Source: Squalus acanthias (taxonomy: Eukaryota). From it: a stretch of 64,000 nucleotides of DNA. Position numbers and translations under genes: made by a program. This document shows, in pieces, positions 1 to 25,669 of the stretch (positions are counted from its first letter, which is position 1; the number at the start of each line of letters is the position of its first letter). The stretch lies in NCBI GenBank assembly GCA_030390025.1, contig CM059428.1, positions 43,400,001-43,464,000 on the forward strand, written 5' to 3'. The notes beneath the pieces were generated by a model. That model did no database searches. It saw only the letters and a program-made list of their open reading frames with translations, and was not told where the DNA came from.

Positions 1-1520
1 GATTAGACTACATCACTCTCAAAATTAATGTAAAATTCAATCATATTATGGTCACTTGTCCCGAAAGGCCCCTTTACCACAAGATTATTGATTAGCCCTT
101 TCTCATTACACAGTACCAGATCCAGAATAGCCTGTTCCCTGGTTGGTTCCTCTACATACTGATCCAGGAAACCATCTCGCATGTATTCCAAGAATTCGTC
201 CCCCACACCATTAGTGGTAATTTGATTTGCCCAGTCCATATGTAGATTAAAGTCCCCCATGATTACCGTATTGCCCTTGTTACATGCACTTCTAATTTCT
301 GGATCGATACTGTGCCCTACATTACCACTACTGTTTGGTGGCCTATACACAACTCCCACCAATGTTTTCCGCCCTTTGCTGTTTCTTAGCTCCACCCAAA
401 CTGAATCCAGTTCTACATCACGATCTGCCGAGCCAAGATCTTTTATCTCTACCGTACCGATCTCATCCCTTATTAACAGCGCTATGCCACCTCCTTTTCC
501 TTTTTGTCTGTCCTTCCTAAATGTTGAGTACCCTGGAACATTCAGTTCCCAGCTTTGGTTACCCTGCAGCCATGTCTCTGTAATGGCAATGACATCATAT
601 CCATTTACTTCTATTAGTGTCATTAATTTCATCCACCTTGTTGCGAATGCTACGTGCATTTAGATAAAGTGCCTTCAACTTTGCCTGTTTAATATTTTTC
701 TGCACTTTGACCCTCTTTACTATTGGCCTTTGTTTCTGCTCCCTACTAGTTTTGCTGACTACTTTTCTAACTTGCACTTCCAGCTTTGTTTCTCTCCATT
801 CTGGGCCCACACTTAGGTTCCCAGCCCCCTGACAAACTAGTTTAAATCATTCCCAACAGCACTAGCAAACCCCCCTGCGAGGATATTGGTCCCGGTTCTG
901 CCGAGGTGTAACCCGTCCAGCTTGTACAAGTCCCGCCTTCCCCAGAATCAGTCCCAATGCCTCAGGAATTTAAATCACTCCCTCCCACACCATCTCTCCA
1001 GCATGCATTCATCTGGTCTATTCTCCTATTTCTGCTCTCGCTAGCACGTGGCCCTGGGAGTAATCCTGAGATTACTACCTTTGAGGTCCTGCTTTTTAAT
1101 TTATTTCCTAGCTCCCTATATTCTGCTTGCAGGACCTCATCCCTCTTTCTACCTATGTCGTTGGTACCGATATGGACCATGACCTCTGGCTGTTCACCAT
1201 CCCCCTTCAGAATGTCCTGCAGGCGCTCAGTGACATCCTTGACCCTGGCACCAGGGAGACAACATACCATCCTGGAGTCACATCTGCGGCCACAGAAACG
1301 TCTATCTGTTCCCCTTACAATAGAATCCCCTATCACTATTGCTCTCCCACTCTTTTCCTCCCCTCCTGTGCAGCTGAGCCACTCGTAGTGCCACCGACTT
1401 GGCTCTTCTGCATTCCCCTGAGAAACCATCTCCCCCAGCAGTATCCAAAACGGAAAATCTGTTGGAGAGGGAGATGGACCCAGGGGACTCCTGCACTACT
1501 TTCCTACTTCTTTTACTCAG
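1..1520 (-). mobile_element. CR1 LINE, 5' part (ORF1 SGNH esterase and ORF2 APE endonuclease), degenerate
   Basis: ORF 3..659 has APE motifs (ITETWL, VVYRPP, GDFN, SDHN). ORF 962..1429 has GDSIVRG...HIGTNDIG, the CR1 ORF1 esterase. Confidence 0.93.
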
Positions 1521-1557
1521 TCTGGCAAGGACAGCATTTATTGCCCATCCCTAACTG

Positions 1558-2175
1558 CCATCTTCAGCTGCTTCATCAATGACCTTCCCTCCAACATAAG
1601 GTCAGAAGTGGGGATGTTCGCTGATGACTGCACAGTGTACAGTGCCATTCACAACTCCTCAGATAATGAAGCAATTCATGCCTGCATGCAACATGACCTA
1701 GACGACGTTCAGGCTTTGGCTGATAAGTGGCAGGTAACATTCGCACCACGGAAGTGCCAGGCAATGACTATCTCCAAGAAGCGAGAATCTAACCACCGCC
1801 CCTTGACATTCAATGGCATTACCATCGCTGAATCCCCCACCATCAACATCCTGGGGGTCACCATTGACCAGAAACTTAACTGGTCCAGCCACATAAATAC
1901 TGTGACAACAAGAGCAGGTCAGAGGCTAGGTATTCTGCGGCATGTGTCTCACCTCCTGACTCCCCAAAGCCTTTCTACCATCTACAAGGAGTGTGATGGA
2001 ATACTCTCCACTTGCCTGGATGAGTGCAGCTCCAACAACACTCACGAAGCTCGACACCATCCAGGACAAACAGCCCACTTGATTGGCACCCCATCCACCA
2101 CCTTAAACAGTCACTCCCTCCACCACCGGCGTACCGTGGCTGCAGTGTGTACCATCTACAAGATGCACTGCAAAT
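1558..2175 (+). mobile_element. LINE (CR1/L2-clade) RT C-terminal fragment
   Basis: ORF 1608..2180 contains MFADD, WQVTFAPRKC, LGVTIDQKLNW. Confidence 0.88.
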
Positions 2176-4029
2176 ACTGATTAAAAAATATCATCCTTAA
2201 ATTCCTTTCAGAATAATGGAACCACAAAGCCTCATAATGCTCTTTTAGTCTATATTTAAAATACTCTTTCAGATTTATTCTTCTACCCTTATAAAACCTA
2301 GTATTCCTTCATGGCACGATCGGGCATTTTCAGAGTAGTAGGGTAGGCATCTGCTGATTGGCTTTCCCTTTACCTAAAGGCTTGCAGTCCTGTCGACTAG
2401 CTTATGTTTCCTTTAATATTCCTTTCCCCCCTTCCCCACCTTGCTCTCTTGATCCTCAGGCTTCCCCACACACACAAACTACAAGCCCTACCCTTCATTG
2501 CCTTCCCCTTGCCTCAACCTTAAAAACTCCATTAGCTCCACTCTTCCTTACCTCGCTCACCCACTCACTCACTGCTGTAAAAACGCTGCTCCTTCCTGCC
2601 TCAAAATACACACAATTAGGGAGCAGCTTTAACTCCTCTCCCAAGCCCGGCTGCTTAAAACAGGCTCAAGCCCACAACCCAATTCAAGCCGCCTTTGCCC
2701 AATTCAGACCAGAACAAGATGTGGGCCTTTCTGTAAATTGATAAAAACAGACCGCATGGTCTCAATTTGGCCAGCAGGCCGACCCAGCAGCAGAACGTGC
2801 TGCAAAGGAAAGAGAGTGAGAGAGCGAGAGGGAAAGAGGGAGGGAGCGCGCACAAGCAATCAGCTAAAAAGGTTTCCAAATGAAGGCGGTGTCAGTGCTG
2901 CACCAAAGCATCAGCCGAATTTTTTGTGCTCAAGTCTCTGGAGAGGGACTTGGAACCCACAACCTTCTGACCCAGACACAAGAGTGCTACCCACTGAGCC
3001 ACGGCCAACCCTGTATGTGAGGGGCACTACAGAAATGCAGGTTGTTGTTGTCCAAGTGCCTATTCTTTTTGTGCAGCAAGTGTCGGTAAACTATTCGACT
3101 GCGGGGTAAGCCCAACGCTACCCTTATCGGGCATCTGCACGCACTGCAGGAGGGATCAGGAATGGGAATCTCGGATGTTTCTCTTTTGCTCCGATTGCCC
3201 AGGAAGCTGAGGTCAGTTGTATCCATTCCTGTTGACTGTTTCAGCAAGGACCTCGAAACCATCAACCCTGGGGGCTTCTTTAATTTGCACAGCTCAGCGC
3301 TACAAAAAGTGCTTGGAGACTGAGGCACTGGGGAGGTCCTGTGTCCAGCACATGTTAGATAGTGGAGAGCTGGAAGTAATTACATGGCAGTAAACTCATA
3401 GAGGGGTTCAGTTGATGTCATAAACTCCCAGAGAGAAGCTTGAGTGGTGTATAACTCTGAGATGACATTGCAGCCTTCAAATCGTTCCTATGTACCAGTA
3501 TGTTTTGTGATATTTGAACTGCAGACTTCAAGGGGGTGCTTTTATTTCTTTGAGCGTCCACTTCTTTGCCAACAGATGAAAACACTGATGTACCCTCCAC
3601 GCTGCATTGCTGAGAGTTTCTTCCCTGAAGAATTAACCACTGCAAGTACTGAGTGAGAATCAACAATCGGTATACGTATATATTACATTTCAAAGGCCAG
3701 TGGGTTATACAAAATCCAAGAAAAGCAACAAACACCAAAGGCGGGGTTTACGATGATCGTGATACAAATGTCTTGTGTTGTGCAATCTGCTGCTCCCTGG
3801 CATGCATTCCATTTCTATCTCATGTTTCACCGCTTTCAAATAATTTTGCTTCCTTTTTTTTGCGATTCTCATACAGACTCTACTTCATCTCATTCTTAAG
3901 AATAAAGACAGCCCCACAAGTTTAATTGAGTTTACAAGTGGTCTCACTCTTTTTGATCCTGAGCTTACTAAAAGTCATGTGACATGTTTCTTGTAAATGT
4001 AACACTTACTTCTCCGGACATTTTCCTGT

Positions 4030-4350
4030 CACTTTCGGATGAGACATTAAACCGAGGTCCCGTCTGCTCTCTCAAATGGACGGAAAAGATCCCACGGCAC
4101 TATTTCGAAGAAGAGCAGGGGAGTTATCCCCGGTAATATTTGGCCAATATTTATCCCTCAACCAACATCACTAAAAAACAGATGATCTGGTCATTATCAC
4201 ATTGCTGTTTGTGGGAGCTTGCTGTGTGCAAATTGGCTGCCGCGTTTCCTACATTACAACAGTGACTACATTTCAAAAGTATTTCATTGGCTGTAAAGTG
4301 CTTTGGGACGTCAGGTGGTCGTGAAAGACACTGTAGAAATGTGAGTGTTT
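4030..4350 (+). mobile_element. Deu-domain SINE (SacSINE1-like), 5'-truncated
   Basis: tttcggatgagacattaaaccgagg...aaaagatcccacggcactatttcgaagaagagcagggg core, repeated many times in the window. Confidence 0.75.
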
Positions 4351-5063
4351 TTCTATTTTTTCCATTTCTGCCCTGTCTGTAATGATTTTCTGTCACAGTT
4401 AAACTTGCTTTTTTAAAATCATATTTTTCTCTTTCCCGCTGACAGGCTGGCTGATTCTTGCCATGTGTCTCACTCCCAAAGTCGTCCTCTGAACTGAGTC
4501 ACTCAGGTCCGTTCGGAAGTTGCTCTCTCCCTCCCAGGAAGTTGTATTTTTTTAATTGTTTTTCTGCTGCCTGACTGGCACCTCCTACCACCTCTCCCCC
4601 AACCCCAAAATCCACCTGGTCCCTAATGCTGCTTCCTGGCACCTCCTCCCAACACTAACCGTCAACTCCTCCCTCTCTCTCCGACTCCAACTGCCGTCTC
4701 GCCTGATTGCTTCGTCCTTCACATTTCTCCATCCCAAAGTGTTGCCTCTTCGCCCTCTTCCTACATCGCTGACCAACACTGGCTCCCGGTTAAGCAACGC
4801 TTCAATTTCAAAATTCTCATCCTTGTTTTCAAATTCCTCCAGGGCCTCGCCCCTCCCTATCTCTGTAATCTCCTCTAGCCCCACAATCACTCAAGATATC
4901 TGCGCTCCTCTAATTCTGCTCTCTTGAGCATTCCTGATTATAACTGCTCCACCATTGGTGGCCGTGCCTTCTGTTGCCTAGGTCCTAAGCTCTGGAATTC
5001 CCCCCCAAAACCTCCCTGCCCCTCTACCTCTCTTTCCTCCTTTAAGACGCTTCTTAAAGAGAG

Positions 5064-5535
5064 TGTCAGCTGTGGCTCAGTGGGCAGCACATTCACCTCT
5101 GAGTCAGAAGGTTGTGGGTTTAAGTCCCACTCCAGGGACTTGAGCACATAAATCTAGGCTGATGTTCCAGTGCAGTGCTGAGGGAGTGCTGCACTGTTGG
5201 AGGTGCTGTCTTTTGCGTGAGACGTTAAACTGAAGTCCCGTCGGCTTTCTCCTGTGGATGTAAAAGATCCCATGGCACTATTTTGAAGAAGGTTGCGGAG
5301 TTCTCCCTGATGTCCTGGGCAAATATCTATCCCTCGACCAGCATCACTTTAAAAAAAAACAGATTATCTGTTCATTTTCACATTGCTGTTTGTGGGAGCT
5401 TGCTGTGCGCAAACTGGCGACCGTTTTCCCCACATTGCCACAGTGACTCCACTTCAAAAAGTACTTCATTGGCTGTAAAGTGCTTTGGGACGTCTGGTGG
5501 TTGTGAAAGGCGCTGTCGAAATGCAAGTCTTTCTT
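5064..5535 (+). mobile_element. tRNA-derived Deu-domain SINE (SacSINE1-like), near full length
   Basis: tRNA head (gtggctcagtggg A-box; gggtttaagtccc B-box) followed by the Deu core gctgagggagtgctgcactgttggaggtgc. Confidence 0.8.
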
Positions 5536-5758
5536 TAAAACCTACCTCTTTGATCAAGCTTTTGGTCACCTGCCCTAATTTCTCCTCATGTGGCTCGGTG
5601 TTAAATTTTTTGACTCATAACGCTCCTGTGAATCGCCTTGGGACGTTTTACAACGTTTAAGGCGGTGTATAAATGCAAGTTGTTTTTTTTCTCTTTTTTT
5701 TCTTGAAAAAAATACAAACCGGAGCGTCCCAGCGTCATCAAGAGCGGATTCAGTGGCT

Positions 5759-5834
5759 ATGCAAATTGTTGCTTCCGTGCGATGTCTGGGGCCTTCCCAG
5801 CGGTCAGCCTTTCGCAGGCAAAATCTATAAAAGA
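5759..5834 (+). promoter_or_regulatory. Candidate promoter of B7-like gene A: octamer ATGCAAAT (5759-5766) plus TATAAAAG (5827-5834)
   Basis: Perfect octamer ~60 bp upstream of a perfect TATA box, ~200 bp before the leader ATG. Motif-based call only. Confidence 0.45.
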
Positions 5835-6035
5835 GAGCGGGCTGCGGGCGCCGTCCCATAGAGAGAGCGGAGCCCCGAGGGTTCAGATATCGGTCATCGA
5901 GCTCTGTCCCGGGTGCCGCCGGAACCCTCCTTAAGATGCGGGTCTTTAGCAGCTGTGGAAACCGATAAAGAAACGATTTTCACTGATCGTCGTCTTGTCT
6001 TGTTTCGTTTTGACAGCTGTCGAGGAGAGCAAAGT

Positions 6036-6090
6036 ATGGTGAGAAGTCTGCTCGCTGTTTTGGTGGCTGTTCAATTCAGTTTGGCTCGAG
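6036..6090 (+). CDS. cd276-like: B7/CD276-like gene A, signal-peptide exon (MVRSLLAVLVAVQFSLAR)
   Basis: tttgacAG acceptor (exon from 6017), ATG at 6036, hydrophobic leader, phase-1 donor G|GTAAGT. Homologous exons at 37478 and 60364. Confidence 0.85.
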
Positions 6091-6211
6091 GTAAGTCTTT
6101 AAATGTAACTGTTTCCTTGCACACATTAGAATGAACGATCCACACAGTTTGAGGTGGTCTTTTCACCACTGAGAAATGGCCCAAAGCAATAACAGTACTT
6201 TCACTTGTAAT

Positions 6212-6336
6212 AGCAAAATACTGCGGATGCTGCAAATCTGAAATAATAACAGAAAATGCTGGAAATACTCAGCAGGTCAGGCAGCATCTGTGGAGAGAAA
6301 AACAAGAGTTAACGTTTCAGGTCTGGGACGGAAGGG
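6212..6336 (-). mobile_element. Short Penelope-like terminal fragment with 13-bp TSD
   Basis: TSD tttcacttgtaat at 6199-6211 and 6337-6349. The empty site is seen in gene C at ~60527. Confidence 0.8.
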
Positions 6337-6445
6337 TTTCACTTGTAATGTTGGGTCAGTTTAATGGGCAAGATGGATAATTCCCAAGTAAACATTGTTC
6401 ATGGAGCTGAAAATAATATTTCAAAGAAATAGCCCCTGTCTATTT

Positions 6446-6686
6446 ACATAAGAACAGAAGAAATGGGAGCAGGAATAGGCCACTTGGCCCCTCGAGCCTC
6501 CTTCGCCATTCAATAAGATCATGGCTGATCTTGGGCTCAAAGCCACTTCCCTGCCCGCTCCCCATATCCCTTCACTCCCTTATCGTGTAAAAATCTGTCT
6601 ATCTCCACCTTAAATGTATTTAATGACCCAGCCTCCACGGCTCTCTGGAGCAGAGAATTCCACAGATTTACGACCCTCTGAAGAAA
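6446..6686 (-). mobile_element. CR1 3' tail truncated at the duplication breakpoint
   Basis: Near-identical to 37888-38128; encodes QRVVNLWNSL on the - strand. Confidence 0.88.
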
Positions 6687-7479
6687 CACGGTAGAAAAAG
6701 TTAGGGCTGGTGCATTCATGTGTAAGTGAATTTTTAATGGCATGATAAGTCCACGCTGAAAATTATCTCCAAGTACTGTAAGTTGCTGCTCAAAAGCCTG
6801 CACAAAGCCTGTGGGGCAGCTGTAAGCGTAATGATGGTCGAGCGCTGCTCCTTCACCACTGACTACAAAATCCGGGCCATTATTGCAAGTAACTCTTGCA
6901 ATTTCAATAACTTGTTAGTAACTTTTGCAACCTTCTGCACTTTAAAGGCTGGGTTCATCTGATAGGAGGAAAAAGTACTGCACAAGAACAAATACAAACC
7001 AGAATGCCCTGGTTTACCAGCGCGGTAAACATGTTTGTTTTGCAATGGTTAATGCTGGGAAGTTTGCTTGGTGCTGAGCATGAATTCAAGACCTGTATTA
7101 GTAATATAGCTGATAGTATTTTGCTGTCGAGGTCTGACAAATGTCTCCCATTGATGCTGTGCATTTTCCAAATTGCAAAAGTGAGGCATGATCTTTCTGC
7201 AAGATTACCCTGAAATTCCTGGGACAGGGAGAGGGCAGAAAGCCTGATTTTTCTACCCTTGGCCAGAAATTTGGGGCAGAACCTACACATTGGAATTCTG
7301 CCCTGTTTACACTGGCCAATTAAATTCTGCAAAGGCGGACGGATGTTCCACTCTAACACTTGCTTTGATGGAGTGGATACCGCAGGAATTTCTGGCCCAT
7401 GGGTATTTTTTTAATGTGATGGATTGAAATATATTATTTCTCTATGAAAAGAGTAGTTAATCCATCTGCAATTTTACAG

Positions 7480-7818
7480 ATCAACAACAAGTAAGTGTTT
7501 GGGAAGAAGCCGTACTCGCCATCCATGGTCAAAATACAGTCCTGCCGTGTCACTTCCTCGTTGGTGACTCCTTAGACCAGATCATCATCATCTGGCAACG
7601 TGTCGAGACCAAAGAGGTGATCTTCCGTTCCAACAGCAGCAAAGATCGGCAGAGTCGGCAGTATTCGGGGAGAGCGAGCCTTTTCCCAGAGGAGTTTAAA
7701 TTGGGAAATGCTTCCCTAAAATTAGAAGGAGTCAGACCAAAGGATGCTGGGCAGTACATGTGCTTTATCAGCACTCCAATAGAAAATAGTACAGGAATCA
7801 TGTCTCTAAATTTTGCTG
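7480..7818 (+). CDS. cd276-like: B7/CD276-like gene A, IgV exon
   Basis: AG|...G|GTATGT, 339 nt, phase 1-1. DQQQVSVWEEAVLAIHGQNTVLPCHF...IIIWQRVET...YSGRASLFPEEFKLGNASLKLEGVRPKDAGQYMCFIS...SLNFA, with canonical V-set C, W and DxGxYxC. Confidence 0.93.
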
Positions 7819-8853
7819 GTATGTTTTCATTTGCATCTTGACTTTTTTTTTTCTTCCAGTGTTGTAGATTAAAATGTTGTTTAATGTATGATTTCAGTAT
7901 AAGTCCTTTTCACGCAATTGAAATCAGTTGCTATTTTTGAGTGTTTGTTTTTATTAAATCAATAGTGTAGCGGAGCAACCTTAAACAAGGCGATGCCTTC
8001 GAGCCTGCTCTGCCCTTCAATAAGATCATGGCTGATCTTCTACTTCTACTCCACTTTCCCGCACTATCCCCATATCCTTTGATTTCCTTAGTATCCAAAA
8101 ATCTATTGATCTGTTGAATATACTCAACGACTGAGCATCCACGACTGAGTGTGTGTATATATAGATTTTTAGACAATAGTATTAAAAACACTGGAAACAA
8201 CCTCCAGGTTCCATCCAACAAGCTGACTCATTTAAGTACAGACACGTGGCACTTGTATGCTTACTATGATTGACGTATCATTGTAAGATAAGGCAGAAGC
8301 TAAATCTTGGGTTTTTTAAGTATTGAAAAGCCACTGGACACATGGACCTACTAATTCGATTAGCTGGAGTAGTTGCTATATTCTTACTATATACAGAGCT
8401 GGGAGTATCTGGTTTGATTTTAGCTAGTTTGTTCCCAGGTTACCTGACCTTAACCAGGGCAACACTTCATTTGGCCTCTGCCCATGAACTAGGAAGAGAA
8501 AACTCTGGTAGGGTTCCTGCTTTTGATTGCTAGCCATTGATCCCTGCTGGAAGCTACGTGAAGTAGCTGTCCTGAGAGGACAGGATTGGGCTCTGATGTA
8601 ATGGTCAATTTGCCTGCAAACATTCCATCTAAGATGACATGGGAAGAATGACCACTTGTGTGATGTACTGGAGGACTGCTGGTGTTTGTGGAACCATGCT
8701 CTGGCATGCGTTACTGCCTTTAGGAGAAAATTGTTGCTTTTCAATTTCCTCACCCCCCACCCCCCAAAATGGTAGCAGGAATTAAAACCTTAGATGGTAT
8801 TTGATGAATTTTATTTCCTTTGTCTATTGACTACTTTTTTAAAAATTCCTCAG

Positions 8854-9138
8854 CGTACTACACAGAACCCAGCCTAATAATCAAACGAACACCAGATGGA
8901 ACAGCTTTCGCCTTTGAATCCCAAGGTTTCCCCAAAGCTACTGTTTTCTGGTACAATGAAAAACACCAGGATATTTCTGCCCTGTCTGAGACCTTGTGCC
9001 AACTTCATGAAGATGGACTGTATTCACTGCGGAGTATTCTGCAAACCAATGATACCAGTAGAAGTTCAAACTACACATTTAGATTAAGGAATGATGTTCT
9101 GCAGCAGTCCTTTTCCTGGACATTTAGTCTTCCTTTGG
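8854..9138 (+). CDS. cd276-like: B7/CD276-like gene A, IgC (B7 C-set) exon
   Basis: cctcAG|...G|GTAAGT, 285 nt. AYYTEPSL...AFESQGFPKATVFW...GLYSLRSIL...NYTFRLRNDVLQQ resembles B7-H3 APYSKP...QGYPEAEVFW...YSCLVRNPVLQQ. Confidence 0.92.
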
Positions 9139-10288
9139 GTAAGTTAATTGATTTGGATCCTATGCAGTGAATCTTTTCCCCAAATAGGAGAAGGCCTAGA
9201 TATTAACTATCTGGCAGCTGACATGAGGGGGGTTGTGATCATGGGAAGCAGGGTGGAGAGGTAGTGACAGTGGCCCACATCATTCTTGTGGAGCCGGGAG
9301 AAGTGCTCCTTCACCTGGCCACACAAATAATTTACCTTTTTTGGGCTGCTTCTGTACCACCGAGTTTTACTGAGCAGACACTCTGCCAAGGTGGCAGTTC
9401 AAAATGTTTTTTATTCATTCATGGGATGTGGGCATCGCTGGCATTTATTGGCCATCCCTAATTGCCCTTGATGAGCCACCTTCTTGGCAATTGAGTGGCT
9501 TGCTAGGCCATTTCAGAGGGCAGTTAAGAGTCAACCACATTGCTGTGGGTCTGGAGTATAGGCCAAACCAGGTAAGGACGGCAGATATCCTTCCCTGAAG
9601 GACATTAGTGAACCAGATGGGTTTTTATGACAATCTGGTAGCTTCATTGTCACCAGTACTGATACTAGCTCTTTATTCCAGATTTATTTAATTAACTGAA
9701 TTTAAATTCCCCAGCTGCCGTGAGTGAGATTTGAACTCATGTCTCTGGATCATTAGTCCAGGCCTCTGGATTACTGGTCCAGTAACAACCACAATGCTAC
9801 CTTTCCTGCAGTAAACAGTCGGGTAAATTACTTAAAATGTATAAACAGATTTAAAAAGCCAGTGAGAATGTACTTCACAGGACCCCGATTTGCATAGGCT
9901 AATGAGGCGTGCACCTGATTCAGGTGGTTGCCTGGGGCACCCAGCAGAAGGCCCCAGCAAAATGCCAGTGGATTGAGAATGGGGCAGTGAGCACACCACC
10001 TCCATTTTAACTCTGCTCCAGAGCAGAGGGGGGCTAAATCCTCCCCGAAATGTGTTCCACTGCTAACCTCCCATTTGATGTACAAATTGAGTTCTAGCTT
10101 AGTGTCACAAAGTATATTTGATCCTTTTCAGCCACATCTGTAACTTCTAATTTAGTACCAGCTTATTCAATGTCACATTTTATGCATCATATAATTAGCA
10201 TTTTTGAAGTCAAATTGTTCATTTAAAATGTATTGTCAAAGAAATTCAAACTAGCACTGAAAGCATTGCTGTAACTTTTATTTTACAG

Positions 10289-10443
10289 AAATTCAAACTG
10301 ATTTTACAAGAAAGCGATGGATGCTGCTTGCTCCCCTGATAACAACTGGATTGATGATCATAATTCTAATTCTAGCATTGGTTTACAAGAAAAATGTCTT
10401 GGGTAGAAAGTACGATCCACCAAAACTATACTTCATGACCTGA
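10289..10443 (+). CDS. cd276-like: B7/CD276-like gene A, transmembrane and short cytoplasmic exon
   Basis: ttttacAG acceptor, phase 1: EIQTDFTRKRWMLLAPLITTGLMIIILILALVYKKNVLGRKYDPPKLYFMT*. The joined CDS is 834 nt (277 aa) if the exon reads to TGA 10441-10443; an internal donor is possible. Confidence 0.8.
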
Positions 10444-10444
10444 T

Positions 10445-10608
10445 GGTCCTGAAATCCCGATCAGAGGCTTCCCGCGAACAGAAGCCTCCGACCAGCAAAA
10501 GAGATGCGCACTTGCCTTCAGTCTCTGCGCGCACGGAGAGTTAGTGCTTTCATCCTGAGGACTCCTGGTCACCTCGTACGCACCCGTGGGCCTCGCAAAA
10601 TACGGGCC
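10445..10608. mobile_element. Possible short Harbinger-type MITE
   Basis: GGTCCTGAAAT...AAAATACGGGCC ends with flanking GAT/GAT; the TIR match is weak. Confidence 0.35.
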
Positions 10609-12167
10609 GATATGTCTTTCAACAAACTGTCCATGGGTGCATCGTACCTGTTTCAGCAGGGGGGGATATTCATTGCTGTGACTTAATGGTATAACAGCTC
10701 TTCACAGTGCTGGAGCAATTGAGCTGACGAAAAACACTTGGAAAGTTCAATTTGTGGGAGGGGGCGATCAGAGAATTGGGGCTACAGTGCAGTATCTCTC
10801 CTCCCCCAACTTCTGATCCCTTTCAGTGTGGCTTTCCTGCCCGGAGCACAGAATTTGGCATTTCTACAAGGCAAAAGGCATTTTGTTTTTTTGCCAATGC
10901 CACCTTAACAAATGTTGCTTCTTTCAGGATGCTTTTTAATGCTCTTTCTTTTCCCTTATGATAATTCACTCATACAGTATAGAATGGGGAAAATAAAAAT
11001 GCATTTCCAGAACAGGAGGGCAGGAAGGGGACCTGTTCCCAGGCACCTCGACCTATGCTGCTCTTGAATTGGTTTGAGAGTGTCTGTTTTATCACACCTC
11101 AGTATTTATCAGTTCTTCTGTTTGTTTTCACAACAGGTAAGCATTATTTTTTATATAAATTAATGAACTTGAAGAATTTAATAACTTTTTCTCCATATTT
11201 GCTCCATCTTGCAGTTGTCAGTGGTGGATCTATAAGCTTCTGAAGGGAGAAGAAATTAGTGAAGGTGCAAAATTTATTTTCTGTGGCAGGGTGACTCGCA
11301 TTTTTGTCACTTTTTTCACACCAGGGATTTTTCCAGCTCTCGTGTTATACAGAAATAATATATATTTATAAATGAGATTTAGCTATGTTGTTTTACATAG
11401 AGACCAGAAACAATTTTAAAAAGTAAGTGGAGACTCCTGATGTGTGGTTGGTACGTGGGATGCACTCTCCATTTATTTAGCTCATGGATAAAGCTTGAAT
11501 GAGAGCACAAGCAGTTGGTATGAATAATTGGAGATTCTGATTGTAAAATTATAGTTTGGGTAGAAAATTGAAATATCTGGAATTCTTCCAGACACAGCCT
11601 ACTACCTGTACTTCTGGATGTGATGCAATTTCCCTGTGAATTAAAAAATAAAGCCTGCAATGAGTTTGTCTTGGATCCGTGAATGAGTAGAAACACACAA
11701 ATCCACTACTGCAGTTGATAGCACCATAACACTCATACAAAGGATAATTCAAAGTCATTTCTACACTACCCCCCTTGTGATTCTTTTTGTGACTATCTAG
11801 GGAACAGTGATGTAGATGTAAATAGATTTTTAATAGTGAAATTTAAGCAGCGATTGTTCGTAAAACTTCTATTTTGAGACAAGTCTGGGGATGGAAAGAC
11901 TAAGATTGAAGATGTTGTACTTTTTAGTAGTAAGCATTCACACTATCGTTTATCCCCTCATTACTTCCACTTACCTGGATGAGTGCAGCTCCAACAACAC
12001 TCAAGAAGCGTGACACCCTCCAGGTCAGAGCAGCCCACTTGATTGGCACCCCATCCACCACCTTACACATTCACTCCACCACTGGCATACCGTGGCTGCA
12101 GTGTGTACCATCTACAAGATGCACTGCAGCAACTGGCCAAGGCTTCTTCAGCAGCACCTCCCAAACT

Positions 12168-13140
12168 CAATATATATTAATGATCTAGACGAGGGAACTA
12201 GATGTAATATCTCCAAGTTTGCAGACGACACAAAGCTGGGTGGGCGTGTGTGCTGTGAGGAGGATGTAGAGAAACTCCAGGATGATTTGGACAGGTTGGG
12301 TGATTGGGCAGATGCAGTATAATGTGGATAAATGCGAGGTTATCCACTTTTGGTGGTATAAACAGGAAGGCAGATTATTATCTGAACGGCAACAGATTGG
12401 GAAAAGGGGAAATGCAACAAGACCTGGGTGTCCTTGTGCACCAGTCGCTGAAGGTAAGCATGCAGGTGCAGCAGGCGGTTAAGAAGGCAAATGGTATGTT
12501 GGCCTTCATAGCGAGAGGATTCAAGTACAGGAGCAAGGATGTCTTGCTGCAGTTGTACAGGGCCTTGGTGAGACCACACCTTGAGTATTGTGTGCAGATT
12601 TGGTCGCCTTATCTGAGGAAGGATGTTCTTGCCATGGTGGGAGTGCAGCGAAGATTCACCAAACTGATACCTGGGATGGCAGGAATGACGTATGAAGAGA
12701 GGTTGGGTCGATTAGGCATATATTTGCTAGAGTTTAGAAGAATGAGAGGGGATCTCATTGAAACTTATAAAATTCTAACAGGACTAGACAGACTAGATGC
12801 AGGTAGGATGTTCCCGATGGCGGGGGAGTCCAGAACCAGGGGTCAAAGTCTAAGGATAAGGGGTAAGTCATTTCGGACTGCGATGAGGAGGAATTTCTTC
12901 ACCCAGAGAGTGGTGAACCTGTGGAATTCTCTACCACAGAAGGCAGTTGAGGTCAATTCATTAAATATATTCAAGAAGGAGTTAGATATATTTCTTAAGG
13001 CTAAGGGGATCAAGGGATATGGGGAGAAAGCAGGGACAGGGTACTGAATTTGGATGATCAGCCATGATCGCATTGAATGGTGGAGCAGGCTCGAGGGGCA
13101 GAATGGCCTACTCCTGCTCCTATCTTCTATGTTTCTATGA
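12168..13140 (+). mobile_element. CR1 LINE 3' fragment inserted in an older LINE fragment (11960-13470)
   Basis: [27 protein letters not shown], and a tctatgtttctatg tail. Near-identical to 24417-25397. Confidence 0.9.
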
Positions 13141-15390
13141 CCTCTTCCAACTCCTATCTTCTATGTTTCTATGACCTCTTCCAACTAGAAGGACAAGGGC
13201 AGCAGGCGCATGGGAACACCACCACCTCCAAGTTCCCCGCCAAGTCACACAGCATCCTGACTTGGAAATATATCGGCCGTTCCTGCATCGTCGCTGGGTC
13301 AAAACCCTGGAACTCCCTCCCTAACAGCACTGTGGGAGTACTTTCACCACACAGACTGCAGCGGTTCAAGCAGACGGCTCACCACCAGCTTCTCCAGGGC
13401 AATTAGGGATGGGCAATAAATGCTGGCCTTGCCCGTGATGCCCACATCTCATGAATGAATAAAAAACAAAATGCCAGTGATGCAGCTTGATTTCTCTCCC
13501 TCCATGTGGGGAAGTGTCTCGTGGTGGGTTTTAAACTCCAGATAACTAGTTAGAGTTGGAAAACACTGAAATTAATCTTGGTTTCAACGCAATGCCAGGA
13601 GAAGGAGGAGTTTGTATGCCAGCGAATTTGCAGTTAATGAGGAACAAGAGAGGTGAGTTCAAGGAAGTGCTGAGCAGAGCAGTATTGATAAAATAGAAGC
13701 GAGAAAGACTGCAGTAAAAAGAAAGGTTGGACACTATAGGTGAGAGGCAGTTACAATTTTGTTGGATGTGAGATAGTTAATTTGCATATTAATACCTTTG
13801 TCTACATGCATGTGTATATATAAAATCATAATTAGATTACAGGCCAAAGTAACTAACTTAGAAGAGGGTAGATGGGGAAAATAATGGCTAGCTTGACTGA
13901 AGAAGAAACATTCTATCACGATATACACATAGCTAAACAATAGTGTCTTGAAAGGGTAGTGTAGGATCACGAGGTTATAATGGTTTGAGAATTACAAGAC
14001 ACAGATGAATGTGGGGTTAGGGATCTGCTGAACCATAGAAATCAGACAGAGAAGGGGCCTACATGCAGAACCAAAGTTCTTGAAATAGCTTATCTGCTGT
14101 GGAAATTTATAAAAAGGAAGGACTGGGTCAGGTCAGGTGACATGAGAGACCCTATGGAGAGGGAAAGGAACATTGAGTGAAGGGTCCAAGGGAATGTCGT
14201 AGATTTGAATTGAAAGTCATGGTATAAGAAGGGGACCCCAGCAAAGGTTAAGGGTAGAAGATTTGAGTCAAATTTGGGGAGACACTTGGAGGTGGATACG
14301 GGCCTGGGCACAAGCCAGTGGGTGCAGACAACTCTTACTGTGACTTTTACCCAAGGCATAACTGGGTAGTATAACTATTCATTATACCTTGTAACAACAT
14401 GAGCAGAGCGCATTGAGTCCCAGCACTGCAAACTACATGAGGGGTATTTGTATGTCTTCAATGGGCCTTCTGCTTGTGAGCATTTAGACCTATATCACTT
14501 ACTTGTAGTCTAAGTGCCCGGCAAATATCAACAAACATCTGTCATTGTGTCACTGACTCATGGGTCCTTGAATCTGTTAAATACGGTTTATACAGCAACT
14601 CCCATTGTACCATCCAATTGTTTTAAGCGATTCTAGGAGATTTTACCTCCACTTTCTCTGGAAGTTTATTCCACATGTTGATCACAATGAAGATGAGTTT
14701 CCTGATACCTGTCCTAAAACTACCTTTTACTAGGCTGAACCTGTGTCCTCTAGATCTACTTCGGCAACTTAATTTAAAGTCACATTCTGGGTTAACTTTT
14801 TCTATACTTGTAGCAATATCTATATGCCTCTGAGATCATCTTTCAGCTGCCTCTTTCTAGGTGGGGAAAAAACCCAGGGGTAAAAATTCACTTGGTTGCG
14901 CCTCCCGTTAGCGCCTTAAGAGGGCGCTAATGGGGCGTTAAGCCGCTAACGCCCGGGCGCAGCGCTGTTTGCGCCGCTCGGGAACTTAACTTGAGATTCT
15001 GCGGCGGCGCTAAAACTTACCGCTGCGACCACCTGCGCGCGCAGATTGTGACGTCATTCCATGGTGCAACGCCCTTGGGGCGCCCCGGAGCAGAAATTGA
15101 GTGGCGCCCCCTGCCTTACCGCCTGGCGCTTCCAACGACCGGAAGACTGGAACGTTATCAATCGGTGTGGGGCTGGGGGGGGCGCTATTTAAAGGGGGCC
15201 TCTTCCTGTCTTTTTCTGTGGTCGACATTTATGCACCACTCGTTCTGAGAGAGAGAGAGAGAGATTCGGAGAGAGAGAGAGAGAGACTTCTACATTGACT
15301 CAACGCTTTGTGAGGTAGTTTTGCCTAGTTCATCCTAACTTTGTTGCTACTTTAGTTGCTGTACCTCATTACTTTTCTGGCAAAGAGAAT

Positions 15391-16551
15391 ATGGGGGCTG
15401 CAATGATTGGGGGCGTCGTCCTGCTCCAGCTGAATCGGAGGATAGTGAGACGCAGACAGAGAGTGGCAATGATGGCCAGACGGAGGAGGGCCATCAGGCG
15501 CATGTACAGGAGAGCTTACCCTCCCAGGGTATATCGTGAACAGCTCTCCTACATCCATATGTCCGAGGAGCTGTGTTTGCGAAGGCTGCGATTCAGCAAG
15601 GAGGTGGTCACTGAGCTCTGCCACCTGCTGCAGCCAGATCTGCAGCCTCAGCTGAGGTCCAGGACGTCTCTGTCGGTGGCAGTGAAGGTCACAGTGGCTT
15701 TGAACTTCTACGCCACTGGCTCATTCCAAGCTGCTGTTGGGGACCTCGCCAATATCTCCCAGTTTGCGGTGCATCGCTGCATCCGGCAGGTCACCAATGC
15801 CCTCTTCAGAAGGAGACGAGACTTCATCTCTTTCCCTATGACCCCAGACAAGCAGCGTGACCGTGCTCTGGGCTTTGCGAGGGTAGCGGGCTTCCCCATG
15901 GTGCAGGGCGCCATTGACTGCACGCATGTGGCTTTGCGTGCTCCGCGAGAGAATGCAGAGGAATTCAGGAACAGAAAGGGGTTCCATTCCTTGAATGTGC
16001 AGTTGGTCTGTGACCACAGACAGGTGATACTCGCTGTCAATGCCCACTATCCGGGCAGCTGCCACGATGCTTTCATCCTGCGCCAGACTACTGTGGCAGA
16101 AGTTTTCGAGGCACCGCATCAGCCAGTTGGTTGGCTTCTGGGGGACAAGGGGTACGCATTGAGCACCTGGCTGATGACACCGCTCCGTACGCCAAACACC
16201 CCTGCTGAGCTGCGGTACAATGAAAGCCATCAAGCAACCAGGAACATTATTGAGCGCACAATCGGCGTGCTGAAACAACGGTTCCGCTGTCTGGACCATT
16301 CCGGAGGAGCCCTGCAGTACTCGCCTGAGCAAGTTTCGAACTTCGTAGTCGTGTGCTGCATGTTGCACAACATGGCAATCCTCAGGACCCAGCCAATGCC
16401 ACCAGGCCTTGTAGCACCACCAGAGGAGGAGGAGGAAGAGGAGGAAGAGGACAAGGACGATGATCATCAGCAGCACCAAGGCAGGAGGGCGGCCCACAAT
16501 GGTCAAACTGCAAGGGCCGTCCGTCAACGACTAATAGCAAGCCGCTTCTAG
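15391..16551 (+). CDS. Harbinger transposase (HARBI1-like DDE_Tnp_4), intact, 386 aa
   Basis: GAIDCTHV, NRKGFHSLNVQLVCD, GSCHDAFIL, WLLGDKGY, RNIIERTIGVLKQRFRCL, CCMLHN; N-terminal HTH (ISQFAVHRCIRQV). Confidence 0.95.
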   Translation: MGAAMIGGVVLLQLNRRIVRRRQRVAMMARRRRAIRRMYRRAYPPRVYREQLSYIHMSEELCLRRLRFSKEVVTELCHLLQPDLQPQLRSRTSLSVAVKVTVALNFYATGSFQAAVGDLANISQFAVHRCIRQVTNALFRRRRDFISFPMTPDKQRDRALGFARVAGFPMVQGAIDCTHVALRAPRENAEEFRNRKGFHSLNVQLVCDHRQVILAVNAHYPGSCHDAFILRQTTVAEVFEAPHQPVGWLLGDKGYALSTWLMTPLRTPNTPAELRYNESHQATRNIIERTIGVLKQRFRCLDHSGGALQYSPEQVSNFVVVCCMLHNMAILRTQPMPPGLVAPPEEEEEEEEEDKDDDHQQHQGRRAAHNGQTARAVRQRLIASRF

Positions 16552-16845
16552 GGCCCCTGCCATTGCTACAAACACTAATCAACCCAGCACGCAACCCCTA
16601 AGCCGGCCAAGGCACCAATAATTCCAACCACCAGCCATGTATATTTTGAATACAGAAACTTATTTATTTTACAAACTCTGTGTGTGTCAATTCCTCATGA
16701 CAAACTCATAGAAATAAACACAAAAAAACAGTCAATAACATAACTGGTTCTCACAACCTGGAGATAATGTCCAAAACACTAAACAAAAGTTGGACCATGA
16801 ACCTCGGCCTTTAATAAAAAAATGACCAGCATTTTGGCACACCTC

Positions 16846-18776
16846 CTACTTTTTGCCCTTCGAGGGTGATCTCCTTCCCTTGCGCACTTCCCCCCTTCTA
16901 ACCCTACTGCTCCTCCGTAATGGGACCTCAGTGGCTGCAGCAAGGCTGGTGGAAGGCTGCTGCTCGTCAGACCCTGACACTGCAGATGCCCCTGAAGGAC
17001 GGCCTCGACCACTTCTGGGCCTGGAGGGCCCGGCTGCAGACTGCACCAACTCTGCATGGGCGGCAGCAGTCTGTCCTACAGGCGGTGGCAAGTGCAGTGG
17101 AGAAGTGACAGTGTTGGCAGCAGGAATGCTGTCATCGTGAGAGAGGACAGCAACTCCCTGCTCGCCCGACACACTGGCACTCCCACGGGGCAGCACTTCA
17201 GCATCCGGAGCAATTTGCCGGAGAGCAGATTGCTGGCCTGCTGCGGCGCGGTGACAGCCCCGGGGACATGTGCACGAACCATCGAGGATGGCAGCAGTCA
17301 GTGCTCGCGTGGCCTCAATCTGAGTCTGCATGAGAGCAGTCTCAGATGGGTTCCTGGCAGCCAGTGACTGAATTGCAGCACTAAGCTTTAGTGTGGCATC
17401 CGCCTGTGCTACAGCGAAGTGCTCCACACTCCTTGCCAGTGATTCAATGCATTCGGGCACCCTTCCCACTGCACCCATGAGCTCAGTGTGCATGCCCACC
17501 GCCTGGCTGTTCATTTCTGCAATCAGCCGCTCCTCCTCTGCGTCCATTGCAGTAGGAGTGTCTGGCATACTCTCCCTCTGGGGAGAAGGCCCCCGTTCTT
17601 CCCTACCCCCCCCATGGCGTTGCTGCAGCCCGCTGGGTCCTGGAGCTTCACCATCATCAGCCCCTTCCCCCCTGCTCCCCTCCGGGGAAGGCGTGTTCCC
17701 AGTGTGGGCATGGGCTTCCTCGGGAGAGGGTGGCACTGATGCTCCGGCTTCCTCTTCCTCCTCAGCTGCAGCATCACTCCCAGTGGCAGCTTCAGGGCCC
17801 GTCTCCTCAGCTGGTGAATCACCATCTGAAAGCAGGGAGGTACAAGAGTGGCTTTAGCGTGAGGACAGGGTGGCAGTAAGGGAGGAATAAGTGCAGCGAG
17901 TTAGCAAGTTGGATTGAAAGTGTCAAAGGCTGGTATTGTGAGGGACAAGTGGAAGGACAGAGGACAAAAAGGTGATGACCTTACCATTGCTGTCCACAAC
18001 GGGGTCGGCGTCTCCAGTGGCGACGGGACCGATCACCCGGCTTGCCACAATCCTGTGGACGCGCTCCTCCAGATCGCTGAGGGGTTGCAGCTGAAGCCGC
18101 CCTCCACCCGTCCGTTGCTGCTGTCTCCGATTATGAGCCAGCTTAGCCTGCAAGAAAAAGGACAGCATCTGAGTAAATATACAGCCATGGTCTTGCCTGA
18201 TGTGCCTCCCATAGGTGAATAGCCCTTACTATATGCAGCCATGGTCTTGCCTGATGTGCCTCCCATAGGTGAATAGCCCTTACTGTATGCAGCCATGGTC
18301 TTGCCTGATGTGCCTCCCATAGGTGAATAGCCCTTACTGTAGGCAGCCATGGTCTTGCCTGATGTGCCTCCCATAGGTGAATAGCCCTTACTGTATGCAA
18401 AGTGTGGAATGTGTGTGTGTGTTTGATGAAAGGGCCATAGGTGTTGGATGAGTGTTGTGCATTGGGGTTTTAAGACCCTCTGGCCATAGAGTGAGGTTGA
18501 GATGGAGGGATGGAGAGGTATTGAGAAAAAGCCACTCACCCTGACGACCCGAGTGAGGTCGTTGAACTTTTTGCGGCATTGAACATGGGTCCTGGGCACC
18601 ATGCTCCTGGAGGAGACACTCTGAGCCACCTCCCTCCACACTCTTCTGAACTCGCGTGGCAAAGGCCTCCTGCCACTCTCCGGGAACAGCATGCATCGTC
18701 TGCGCTCCACTGCGTCAACCAGAGCATCCAAGGCCCGCTCGGTGAAGCGATGAGCGCGTTCTCTCACCCTCTCCAT
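16846..18776 (-). CDS. Harbinger Myb/SANT-like DNA-binding protein (NAIF1/MSANTD-like), 3 exons: 18776-18540, 18147-17985, 17825-16846; 459 aa
   Basis: RFTERALDALVDAV...W..VA..V....RTHVQCRKKFNDL|AKLAHNRRQQQRTGGG. Both introns are GT-AG with matching phases (0 and 1). Basic C-terminal NLS-like tail. Confidence 0.88.
18182..18397. repeat. 54-bp minisatellite, 4 copies, in intron 1 of the Myb gene
   Basis: Unit cagccatggtcttgcctgatgtgcctcccataggtgaatagcccttactgtatg starts at 18182, 18236, 18290 and 18344. Confidence 0.97.
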
Positions 18777-19881
18777 GCTTGGCAGCAAAATGGATTACAG
18801 GTCTCTCCAGGCTGAGATTCAAGGCTGCAATGAGCAGGGTGTGGCTGGGGAGCAAGTGGCCCCCCCCGCTTTAAGAAGTGTCCGGCGCCATTGTGTCTGT
18901 GTTCCCTCGTTAACTGGCAGCAGTTGCGCTGCGCTCGTGCGCTGAGTTAGCGCCTCACTCCTTGGCCTTTGCGCCTTAAGAGAGGTGTGCAGCGCCTAAT
19001 TTAGCGCTCCACTCACCTCCCGGGGCGGTAAAAGTGAAGTTTCCTGTCAGTGCCGATAATTAGAGCCAGGCGCTAATATTTGCGTCCGGACGATATTTGC
19101 GCCCCAAATGGGGCGCGACCTAATTTCTACCCCCCAGTCTTTCCCCTCAGTTCAGAGCCCTGACACCTGAGAATCAGTCTTGTGGCTCTTCTCTGCACCA
19201 CCTTCAGCATTTGGCTGTCTCTTGCTTCTGGGTGACCAGAATGGGATGCAGTATTCAAGGTTTGGGTGAACAAAGGCACGATAAATTTTGATCGCTCCTC
19301 CCTCTTCATTATATTCTACCATTTTTGGGCTGTATAATTCAACATTGGGTCAGCTTTGCTGCTAACCGCTCTGCCTTGGTTGGCCATATTTATCGTAGAG
19401 TCTAGCAAGACTCCATGTTCTCTTTCAGTTTCATTCTTAGCAATTTCAACACCATTCATGCAGTATACATGTTGTCTATCTTTCCTTCCTGTGTGTAGCA
19501 TTTGTCTGCATTATGTTTCTTCTGCCATTGTTCTGCCCACTTGCATATGTTGTCCATCTCACCCTGTAATTTCTAAGCTGCCTCTTCCAAATCCACTGCT
19601 TCTCCTAGTTTGGTATCACCCATAAATCTGACCACTTTGCATCGAGTTTCTGAATCCAGGTCATTTACGTAAATTGGAAATAATAGTGCTCCTAGCACCA
19701 ACCCTGAGGCACCCGACACAGTACTCCCCTCCAATCTGACCCAGCTCCTCTGATGAACAATTACTGTTTCCTATCCTTCAGCCAGTTACTTCTCCATTCC
19801 CAAAGTTTACCCTGAACCCCCTCAGCCTTGAGTTTAATGATCAAAAGCCTTTTGAGGTGTCGGCAGGGCTTAACACAGTTC

Positions 19882-21000
19882 AATAGCAAAATACTGTGGA
19901 TGCTGGAAATCTGAAATAACAACAGAAAATGCTGGAAACACTCAGCAGGTCAGGCAGCATCGAGGAGAGAGAAACGGAGTTAACGTTTCAGGCCGAGGAC
20001 CCTTCGTCAGAACTGGAAAAGGTTACAGACGTAACAGATTTTTAAGCAGGGACAGGGAAAGGGAGGAGGGGAGGAAAGAACAAAGGGAGGGACTGTGATA
20101 GGCTGGAAGGCAGGAGAGATTGACTGACAAAAGGGATGATGGTGCAAGGCAAAAGGAGAAGGTAATGGGACAAGTTAAGAAACAAAAGATGACTAGATGA
20201 GATGTAAATGGCAATGGTAGAATCATCAACAGCTACCATGTGAGAAAAATTGGAAAAAAATATATAGGGGTTGACGTTATAGTCTGAAATTGTTGAACTC
20301 GATGTTATGTCCAGAAGGCTGTAAAGTGCTTAATCGAAAGATGAGGTGCTGTTCCTCGAGCTTACGTTGAGCGAAGGGGAAGGGATGTTGGGGGTGATAG
20401 AGGAGTGGACCAGGGTGTTGTGGAGGGAGTGGTCCCTTCAGAATGCTGAAAGGGGAGGGGAGGGGAAGATGTGTTTGGTGGTGGGATCACACTGAAGGTG
20501 GCAGAAATGACGCAGGATGATCCGTTGAATGTGGAGGCTGGTGGGGTGAAAGGTGAAGACAAGGGGAACCCCATCGTGGTTCTGGGAGGGAGGGGAAGGG
20601 GTGAGAGCAGAAGTGCGGGAAATGGAACGGACACGGTCAAGGGCCATGACAACCACGGTAGAGGTAAATCCTCAGTTGAGGAAAAAGGAAGACATATCGG
20701 AAGCACTAGTATGGAAGGTGGCATCGTCAGAACGATGACTGTATTGGTGCCGTTTCCTGCTCTCACCCTGAACTGGAAAATTTCATTCACTTGGCTTCCA
20801 ATTTCCACCCTTCCCTCACCTTCACATGGTCCATCTACGGCTCTTCCCTTCCCTTCCTCGACTTCTCTGTCTCCATTTCTGGGGATAGGCTATTGACCAA
20901 CATCCACTATAAACCCATATACTCTCCCCGCTTCCTGTAAGGATTCTATTCCATTCTCCCAGTTTCTCCATCTTCGCCGCATCTGTTCTGACAATGCCAC
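19882..21000 (-). mobile_element. Penelope-like retroelement fragment with an inverted 5' part
   Basis: The - strand encodes PLVFTFHPTSLHIQRIILRHF..DPTTKHIFPSPPLSAF. From ~20735 the + strand encodes DDCIGAVSC..LENFIHLASNFHPSLTFTWSI (RT). The terminal repeat starts aatagcaaaatactg. Confidence 0.8.
19978..20014 (-). ncRNA. Minimal type I hammerhead ribozyme of a Penelope-like element
   Basis: - strand: AGUU CUGACGA AGGGUC CUC GGCCU GAAA CG UU AACU. Intact core, stem I AGUU/AACU, stem II, palindromic ACGU stem III. Confidence 0.7.
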
Positions 21001-21164
21001 TCTATCTCGGCCCCCTTCCCTATGTCTGCCAGCAAGAGAATGTGCAGCAAAGGAAAGAGAAAGAGAGCGAGAAAGAGAGAGTGAGTGCAGGAGCAAGCAG
21101 CAGAAAGGTTGGTGATTGAAGGCAGTGTGAATGTGCAGAGCTGAGAGCAGCCTCTACTGGCAAG

Positions 21165-21249
21165 AAAAGCCTACTGCACCTGGTATTCCCAGGAGGTCTC
21201 CCAAGTAGGTATTAACCCAGGCTTGCCTCTGCTTAGCATCTGAGTTTAG
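21165..21249 (-). pseudogene. 5S rRNA-derived fragment (3' ~85 nt plus T-run terminator)
   Basis: aaaagcctactgcacctggtattcccaggaggtctccc...tgcttagcatctgag is the reverse complement of the 3' part of vertebrate 5S rRNA, with substitutions. Confidence 0.8.
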
Positions 21250-24200: not shown

Positions 24201-25397
24201 GTATTTGGACTTTCAGAAGGCTTTCGATAAGGTCCCGCATAAGAGATTAGCGTGCAAAGTTAAAGCACATGGGATTGGGGGTAAGGTACTGACTTGGATA
24301 GAAAACTGGTTGGCAGACAGGAAGCAAAGAGTTGGAATAAACGGGTCTTTTTCCGAGTGGCAGGCAGTGACTAGTGGGGTACCGCAGGGATCGGTGCTAG
24401 GACCCCAGTTATTCACAATATATATAAATGATCTAGACGAGGGAACTAGATGTAATATCTCCAAGTTTGCAGACGACACAAAGCTGGGTGGGCGTGTGTG
24501 CTGTGAGGAGGATGCAGAGAAACTCCAGTATGATTTGGACAGGTTGGGTGATTGGGCAGATGCATAGCAGATGCAGTATAATGTGGATAAATGCAAGGTT
24601 ATCCACTTTGGTGGCAAAAACAGGAAGGCAGATTATTATCTGAATGGCAATAGATTGGGAAAAGGGGAAGTGTAACGAGACCTGGATGTCCTTGTGCATC
24701 AGTCGCTGAAGGTAAGCATGCAGGTGCAGCAGGCGGTTAAGAAGGCAAATGGTATGTTGACCTTCATAGAGAGAGGATTCAAGTACAGGAGCAAGGATGT
24801 CTTGCTGCAGTTGTACAGGGCCTTGGTGAGACCACACCTTGAGTATTGTGTGCAGTTTTGGTCACCTTATCTGAGGAAGGATGTTCTTGCCATGGAGGGA
24901 GTGCAGCGAAGATTCACCAGACTGATACCTGGGATGGCAGGAATGACGTATGAAGAGAGATTGGGTCCATTGGACTTGTATTCGCTAGAGTTTAGAAGAA
25001 TGAGAGGGGATCTCATTGAAACTTATAAAATTCTAACAGGACTAGACAGACTAGATGCAGGAAGGATGTTCCCGATGGCGGGGGAGTCCAGAACCAGGGG
25101 TCACACTCTAAAGATAAGGGGTAAGCCATTTAGGACTGCGATGAGGAGGAATTTCTTCACCCAGAGAGTGGTGAACCTGTGGAATTCTCTAGCACAGAAG
25201 ACAGTTGAGTCCAATTCATTAAATATATTCAAGAAGGAGTTAGATATATTTCTTAAGGCTGAGGGGATCAAGGGATATGGGGAGAAAGCAGGGACAGGGT
25301 ACTGAATTTGGATGATCAGCCATGATCGCATTGAATGGCGGAGCAGGCTCGAGGGGCCGAATGGCCTACTCCTGCTCCTATCTTCTATGTTTCTATG
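21250..25397 (+). mobile_element. Near full-length CR1 LINE (ORF1 zinc finger/esterase; ORF2 APE-RT), disabled by stops and frameshifts
   Basis: ORFs 21403..21843 (CSSC..CRKC), 21888..22322, 22481..23424 (APE), 23581..24567 (RT, KFADDTK), 24694..25305; tail tctatgtttctatg. Confidence 0.95.
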
Positions 25398-25669
25398 AGA
25401 TCGGGTGTTGTTTTTTTTTTACTGTATTTCTTAAATTAATCCAGCATTAAATGCACTGGCGTGGAATTTGCTCTCAGCGGCGCTCGCCGTTCATTACACT
25501 TGCAGCTGCCCACAAACTTTTCGTGGGCTTTTGAGTGGCAACTTACGGTCATCGGGTGTCTGAAACAGCACGGCGCCCTCTACAGGAGATGTGGGGCGTG
25601 TGTGAACAGGTCAAGCAACATCGTGTCTCCTCAACCAATCAGATTGAAGAATCCTCACTGAGACACGCA

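Follow-up and report, generated by a model that had tools for sequence, protein, structure and literature searches.

How a gene can come to stand under the upstream region and the leader of its neighbour is the question raised by gene A of a 64,000-nt stretch of the Squalus acanthias genome (contig CM059428.1 of assembly GCA_030390025.1, positions 43,400,001-43,464,000, forward strand), which is referred to here as the window and to which all coordinates are relative. The window contained three B7-like units on the + strand in the order A, B, and C. Their V exons all matched Pfam V-set (3/3), the two C exons tested both matched C2-set_3, and the best match by sequence among the solved structures of the PDB was CD276, followed by PD-L1 and butyrophilins. 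Gene A showed the layout expected of an immunoglobulin (Ig) ligand of the B7 family, with a leader, an IgV domain, an IgC domain, a single transmembrane (TM) helix, and a short tail. Our analysis indicates that the 5' part of this gene comes from gene B and appears to have been joined to the body of an old paralogue. With a probability of roughly 60%, we take this chimera to have formed where the two copies of one real head-to-tail duplication (about 31.4 kb) meet, within a cluster of B7-like (CD276-like) genes arranged in tandem.

Self-BLAST confirmed the near-identity of 1-6686 to 31454-38128 from which the initial annotation had started. The two copies were 99.28% identical over 6,688 columns and were separated by 33 substitutions (0.49%) and four indels. 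The substitutions comprised 21 transitions, nine of them at CpG, and 12 transversions, and derived changes were found on both copies (five on the A copy and six on the B copy, at the 11/33 sites that could be scored), so that the differences resembled real mutations. The polarisation was a crude one, made with other repeat copies and with a true outgroup only at site 6174, and derived changes on each side are given by alleles and paralogues alike. Nine of the 33 substitutions fell within a 500-bp segment at the promoter-like region, 5500-6000 (corresponding to 36940-37440), including a dinucleotide change at 5740-5741. At the left end, the first 372 bases (372/372) were identical to the B copy, and the long interspersed nuclear element (LINE) located there reached further left in the B copy, to about 31102; position 1 is therefore the edge of the window and not a breakpoint. 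At the rate of 7e-10 per generation given for the epaulette shark, whose pi is 0.002 (accessible part of PMC10587355), the block would be at most about 3.5 million generations old; this estimate is a maximum, since the two copies may stem from different alleles.

The direction of the transfer was provided by a second LINE, located in intron 1. Both ends of this element were present in B, and B was colinear with C on either side of it, while the piece in A was cut at the junction, which identified B as the donor of the 5' block. The element in B contained an open 295-aa reverse transcriptase frame (Pfam RVT_1, E 3.5e-20). The earlier description of the piece in A as the last 240 bp of a 1.6-kb CR1 absent from C was correct for the element, but the clade name CR1 is one that we presume. 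Similarly, the insertion described as Penelope was real, being flanked by a 13-bp target-site duplication (TSD; 6199-6211 and 6337-6349) with an empty site in C, but its label, which is presumed from sequence motifs, was not confirmed by Pfam, since none of four frames of a longer relative of the presumed Penelope insertion was matched. Over 1,329 aligned bases, substitutions between B and C reached 3.46%, a divergence some seven times that of the A and B blocks (0.49%). The order of events proposed earlier was thereby upheld, with the split of B and C (3.5%) followed by the two insertions in B and then by the duplication (0.49%).

The switch to an unrelated repeat after 6686 was also borne out. 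From 6684 on, the sequence matched the reverse strand of a repeat at 26788-26721 with 82% identity (0/1000 shuffles), and 6775-6849 matched 25549-25476 with 79% identity. The 100 bp to the left of the junction were unlike this repeat (871/1000 shuffles reached the score). The junction is thus a non-homologous join, and the long homology of a crossover of the KIR or anti-Lepore haemoglobin type was not found. Gene conversion or homologous unequal crossover, by which the 5' region of A would have been homogenised from B at unchanged copy number, would suit paralogues of one cluster, and the uneven divergence of the block could represent patchy conversion. However, the tract would end in a LINE carried only by B and next to unrelated sequence, and since the ends of introns 1 of A and B were not significantly alike (31/300 shuffles), there was no homology for conversion to resolve on. 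We regard this route as highly improbable.

Three homologue searches gave 7/81, 18/135, and 11/5,559 candidates, with 27 named proteins altogether. In the tree of the V exons (30 rows), A grouped with five proteins from sawshark, whale shark, two bamboo sharks, and Mustelus (support 100/99), and B and C were placed within a 15-row clade including rays (99/99). The tree of the C exons (27 rows, without P0026, P0007, and the frameshifted C exon of gene C) also placed A in the A clade (100/99); the B clade was not resolved there. The B7-like paralogues A and B separated before the main shark lineages split. Among the matches listed, the protein nearest to the V exon of A was from sawshark (Pristiophorus), with 79-81% identity, and those nearest to the V exon of B were from Heptranchias and Pristiophorus, with 79% identity. 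The IgV of A, previously called highly diverged, was so with respect to B (49% amino acid identity of the V domains) but not with respect to its sawshark orthologue. A was about as close to this orthologue (V 88/109, C 77/94 identities) as B was to its own (V 92/115, C 80/94), which argues that the V-C-TM module, described as old and indeed belonging to an old clade by its V and C exons, is a conserved paralogue rather than a decayed one. A canonical pair of cysteines forming a disulfide in the IgC domain is a feature of the B7 family. This pair was missing, with one Cys in A and none in B (40686-40970), and it was likewise absent from the two clades and from a catfish relative; because the loss is common to both clades, it marks a clade trait and not decay.

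The leader of gene A was of B type, and its V and C exons were of the A clade (100/99), which points to different genes of origin for the 5' and 3' parts. The leader matched 9/11 B-clade shark leaders (at most 6/2000 shuffles each; 2 of 13 with partial N-termini were left out) and 0/5 A-clade N-termini. Together with the LINE, which is whole in B and cut in A, this agreed with the earlier derivation of the 5' block from the B lineage. The comparison with leaders of A orthologues, which the initial annotation had put forward as a check, supports a native A leader different from the B type, short of proof. Three of the A-clade N-termini were Met-rich, and those of Chiloscyllium plagiosum and Mustelus matched each other (0/2000 shuffles) and may represent the native A leader. 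The N-terminus of the whale shark protein ended like the acceptor in the window. Against 6687-7479 and the intron end, none of the five (0/5) scored above shuffles. No remnant of an A-type leader was found between the junction and the V exon; the best E in the search of 2,576 six-frame segments was 1.1. All five N-termini of the A-clade orthologues (P0001, P0002, P0003, P0024, and P0026) were irregular, some of them resembling intron read-through. Across sharks, the expression of gene A may be weak or its annotation poor.

When spliced, the hybrid gave 277 codons without a stop, with GT/AG sites and all introns in phase 1, in accordance with the earlier statement that the phase-1 introns keep the frame. 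The predicted protein contained an 18-residue leader, five N-glycosylation motifs, and a hydrophobic 19-mer (2.72) at residue 240. A profile made from 12 shark TM exons matched one of 2,576 six-frame segments, located at 10289 (E 7.6e-10; the second-best E was 1.7). Hybrid A is the sole complete leader-V-C-TM frame, and thus the sole membrane-anchored one, within the window. Strong splice-site-like sequences were present after the TM exon (11100-11260, with a donor at about 11137 and an acceptor at about 11215), and this part possibly holds tail or UTR (untranslated region) exons. On the 5' side, the CpG-rich region before the leader is a putative promoter, judged by its CpG content and by motifs that we take to be an octamer (5759), a kB-like site (5788), and TATAAAA (5826-5832). 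The octamer and the kB-like motifs were unchanged between the A and B copies, and 5585-5996 was single-copy in the window apart from its B counterpart.

The geometry of the locus fits a tandem duplication, with the equivalent of 38128 joined to 6687 and the body of A lying ahead of B. In the ancestral order A then B, one break would have occurred within intron 1 of A, in a dispersed repeat or at its border, and the second within intron 1 of B, at a point 240 bp inside the LINE. The ends would have been joined without long homology, through end joining or template switching, and the product would read intact A (expected some 24 kb upstream of base 1), the hybrid with the 5' part of B and the 3' part of A, and then B. 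The leader of B would be spliced to the V-C-TM exons of A, in frame because both introns are in phase 1, and after cleavage of the signal peptide the mature protein would be essentially of A type. The effect would then be regulatory, with an A-type surface ligand placed under the upstream region of B. A tandem duplication also accounts for a block match with no left end in the window.

The same junction and the same switch of lineage would be given if only the 5' region of B had been copied into intron 1 of A, or if a deletion had joined a near-identical upstream copy of B to A; the leader of A itself would then be lost or lie further upstream. Other partial copies in the cluster, namely B without a TM exon and C without a promoter, make a complex rearrangement plausible. 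However, this route calls for a second junction or for two events, of which no trace was visible, the match reaching the edge of the window. We consider it possible but rather unlikely. The earlier account of a duplicated 5' block followed by a fusion has the same need for two events, while the single tandem duplication of 6687-38128 suffices. The term promoter and leader swap has to be abandoned as well under a tandem duplication, since it implies that A lost its own promoter, whereas the duplication adds a third, hybrid copy and keeps the parent A upstream.

Several observations weigh against a real tandem duplication. The parent A would lie beyond the edge of the window and is hence a prediction. 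All five A-clade N-termini may be predicted intron read-through, which leaves the native leader of A insecure. The TM exon of A was about equally similar to both clades, and its lineage was not assignable by identity. The inverted-arm match (64/1000 shuffles) was suggestive of a left arm lost from the repeat after the junction. The substitutions were unevenly spread over the block, with 1/33 in the first 2,000 bases (binomial p 1e-4; longest-gap p 0.002-0.012), or 1/27 after merging of clusters (p 9e-4). The divergence of 0.49% is close to allelic levels and, with this unevenness, fits two haplotypes as well as paralogues. These last features are those of an assembly artefact in which a 31.4-kb stretch was retained from each of two haplotypes and placed side by side (false heterotype duplication), producing a false chimeric gene. 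Such a false duplication shares the topology of a tandem duplication, and the low and patchy divergence of the block and its join within repeats speak for it. In the accessible part of one study, false chimeric gains were described, and false duplications were mostly separated by gaps, sometimes by wrongly filled sequence (PMC9516828). No assembly gap lies between the two copies here, with 0 N across the 64,000 bases, although one may have been wrongly filled, and the two sides of the junction had no common repeat through which the assembly graph could loop; both points reduce the risk of an artefact in part. A true allele-specific tandem duplication within one contig is also reported in the accessible part of that study, so allele-like features alone are not proof of an artefact (PMC9516828). 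We judge an artefact unlikely, and a real tandem duplication remains the preferred explanation. The coordinates of the features are given in Table 1.

Table 1. Features of the B7-like cluster in the window
Feature	Position	Strand	Details
5' block of gene A	1..6686	+	99.28% identical to 31454-38128 by alignment; left end beyond the window
Promoter-like region, CpG-rich	5701..6100	+	CpG observed/expected 1.08-1.09 vs 0.44 window-wide; motif names presumed
B-type leader exon	6017..6090	+	ATG 6036; phase-1 donor GTAAGT; coding sequence identical to 37459-37532
Short retroelement-type insertion (6212-6336)	6199..6349	.	TSD; common to A and B; empty site in C
3' 240 bp of the LINE of B	6447..6686	-	cut at the junction; alignment
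Junction 6686/6687	6684..6687	.	non-homologous; possible microhomology of up to about 3 bp (AAA); without N
Two pieces of an unrelated dispersed repeat	6684..6849	+	similarity begins at the junction; 82% and 79% matches
Putative duplicated unit, second copy	6687..38128	+	31,442 bp; intron 1 of A to intron 1 of B
A-clade IgV exon	7480..7818	+	Pfam V-set; open frame
A-clade IgC exon	8854..9138	+	Pfam C2-set_3; one Cys, without canonical pair
TM exon of A	10289..10443	+	read through to the stop
Donor block of gene B	31454..38128	+	promoter-like 37101-37500; leader exon 37459-37532; alignment
LINE in intron 1 of B	37889..39485	-	about 1.6 kb; reverse transcriptase frame 38330-39214; empty site in C (comparison with C)
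Gene B, V and C exons	39772..40970	+	V 39772-40122; C 40686-40970; open
Gene C	60345..63913	+	leader 60345-60418; V 62682-63035; C exon 63622-63913

Genes B and C had been treated as complete genes, which did not hold for either of them. In the profile search, no recognisable TM exon was found in the 19 kb between the C exon of B and the leader of C (40971-60344), where an exon broken by stops could escape, and the C exon of gene C contained a 7-bp tandem duplication near 63765 that led to a frameshift and a stop at codon 205. Splicing of the C exon of B to the leader exon of C met a stop after eight codons, and read-through from the C exon of B into the intron met no stop over about 150 codons. 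Possible readings of B are a soluble form, a gene truncated at its 3' end, and the front half of a single gene whose leader-V-C block was duplicated; B and C together may form such a gene, with its TM exon beyond 64000, an arrangement that recalls 4Ig B7-H3. The similarity of B and C began at about 60303 and did not include the promoter-like region. A B-type promoter was looked for upstream of C, and only tails of short interspersed nuclear elements (SINEs) and the 21-bp start of the homology at 60303 were found. A CpG-rich stretch at 49701-50100, with no other copy over 49763-50147 and a GTAAGT donor near 49990 at its end, lay 10 kb upstream of the leader of C and is possibly a first exon or promoter. 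A wider scenario in which an older internal duplication of leader-V-C, in parallel to 4Ig B7-H3, left B without an adjacent TM exon and with a frameshifted second copy, a later junction put the old A ectodomain under the promoter of B so that cells switch from the B to the A ligand, and the hybrid is expressed and was kept by selection is quite unlikely in our estimate.

Two elements which we take to be of Harbinger/PIF type were located at 14867-19140 and 50855-55267 and differed by 2.15% substitutions. They carried a DDE_Tnp_4 transposase with an open frame of 386 aa, had terminal inverted repeats, and lay in similar target sites; they were probably active recently. A 54-bp tandem repeat in their intron-like part differed in copy number between the two (18176-18399 and 54248-54526). 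These elements were considered as a part of the duplication and were rejected owing to their different flanks, their DDE_Tnp_4 transposase, and their other offset. Colinearity of the DNA downstream of A with that downstream of B was also rejected, since the 24 matches found were in both orientations and at varying offsets and formed no colinear chain.

Outside of this window, the A and B lineages are probably linked in Mustelus too, where one A-clade and one B-clade protein were found on equal-sized contigs. Fused gene models were uninformative on gene order in the three of about 150 unnamed matches that were looked at, which were 27-54% identical. Literature searches, with most subscription papers outside their coverage and supplements not included, turned up no published account of this shark cluster, and CD276 was not mentioned in the accessible part of PMC12151841. 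If the duplication is real, it represents a recent, base-resolved regulatory rewiring between two old B7-like paralogues, in which the unchanged mature protein would isolate the effect of the upstream region, and it shows a little-studied shark cluster turning over via partial duplications. In the case of an artefact, the perfect frame would lead annotation to accept a false chimeric gene.

Duplication junctions are a well-known source of hybrid genes, and the mechanism itself is textbook. In anti-Lepore haemoglobin and the CYP11B1/CYP11B2 chimera, an extra hybrid lies between retained parents, and a gene body stands under the promoter of its neighbour. These hybrids arose by crossover in highly similar sequence, whereas the shark junction is non-homologous. 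A closer geometry is that of the tandem-duplication chimeras of Drosophila yakuba, in which a duplication ignoring gene boundaries joins the 5' part of the downstream gene to the 3' part of the upstream gene, as given in the Fig 2 legend, and 24/76 were upregulated (accessible part of PMC5460883). A regulatory effect would be expected here as well. The shark case differs in that its parents, which agree in intron phase, are old paralogues within a single Ig family and that the mature A protein would be unchanged; its parent copy and its expression are predictions. The hybrid KIR genes share with it a tandem immune cluster of the Ig family, a hybrid gene, a switch of promoter, and breakpoints at transposons, and a section heading attributes them to Alu-mediated recombination, with contracted haplotypes (accessible part of PMC2816608). 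In contrast, the shark junction joined two unrelated repeats, the V domains were 49% identical, and the haplotype was probably expanded. For B and C rather than for the junction in A, the comparison is with 4Ig B7-H3 (CD276), which arose by tandem exon duplication (accessible part of PMC3172298); B followed by C is perhaps a similar duplication of leader-V-C before a single TM exon, but the block in the shark includes the leader, and its second C exon is frameshifted. Finally, the hybrid shares the V-C2-TM layout of the shark proteins named 'CD276 antigen-like', whose B clade is found in sharks and rays; this name is an automated database name, and our trees were built without true CD276, so it does not imply CD276 orthology. 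Unlike the A-clade proteins of this group, 0/5 of which have one, hybrid A carries a B-type leader.

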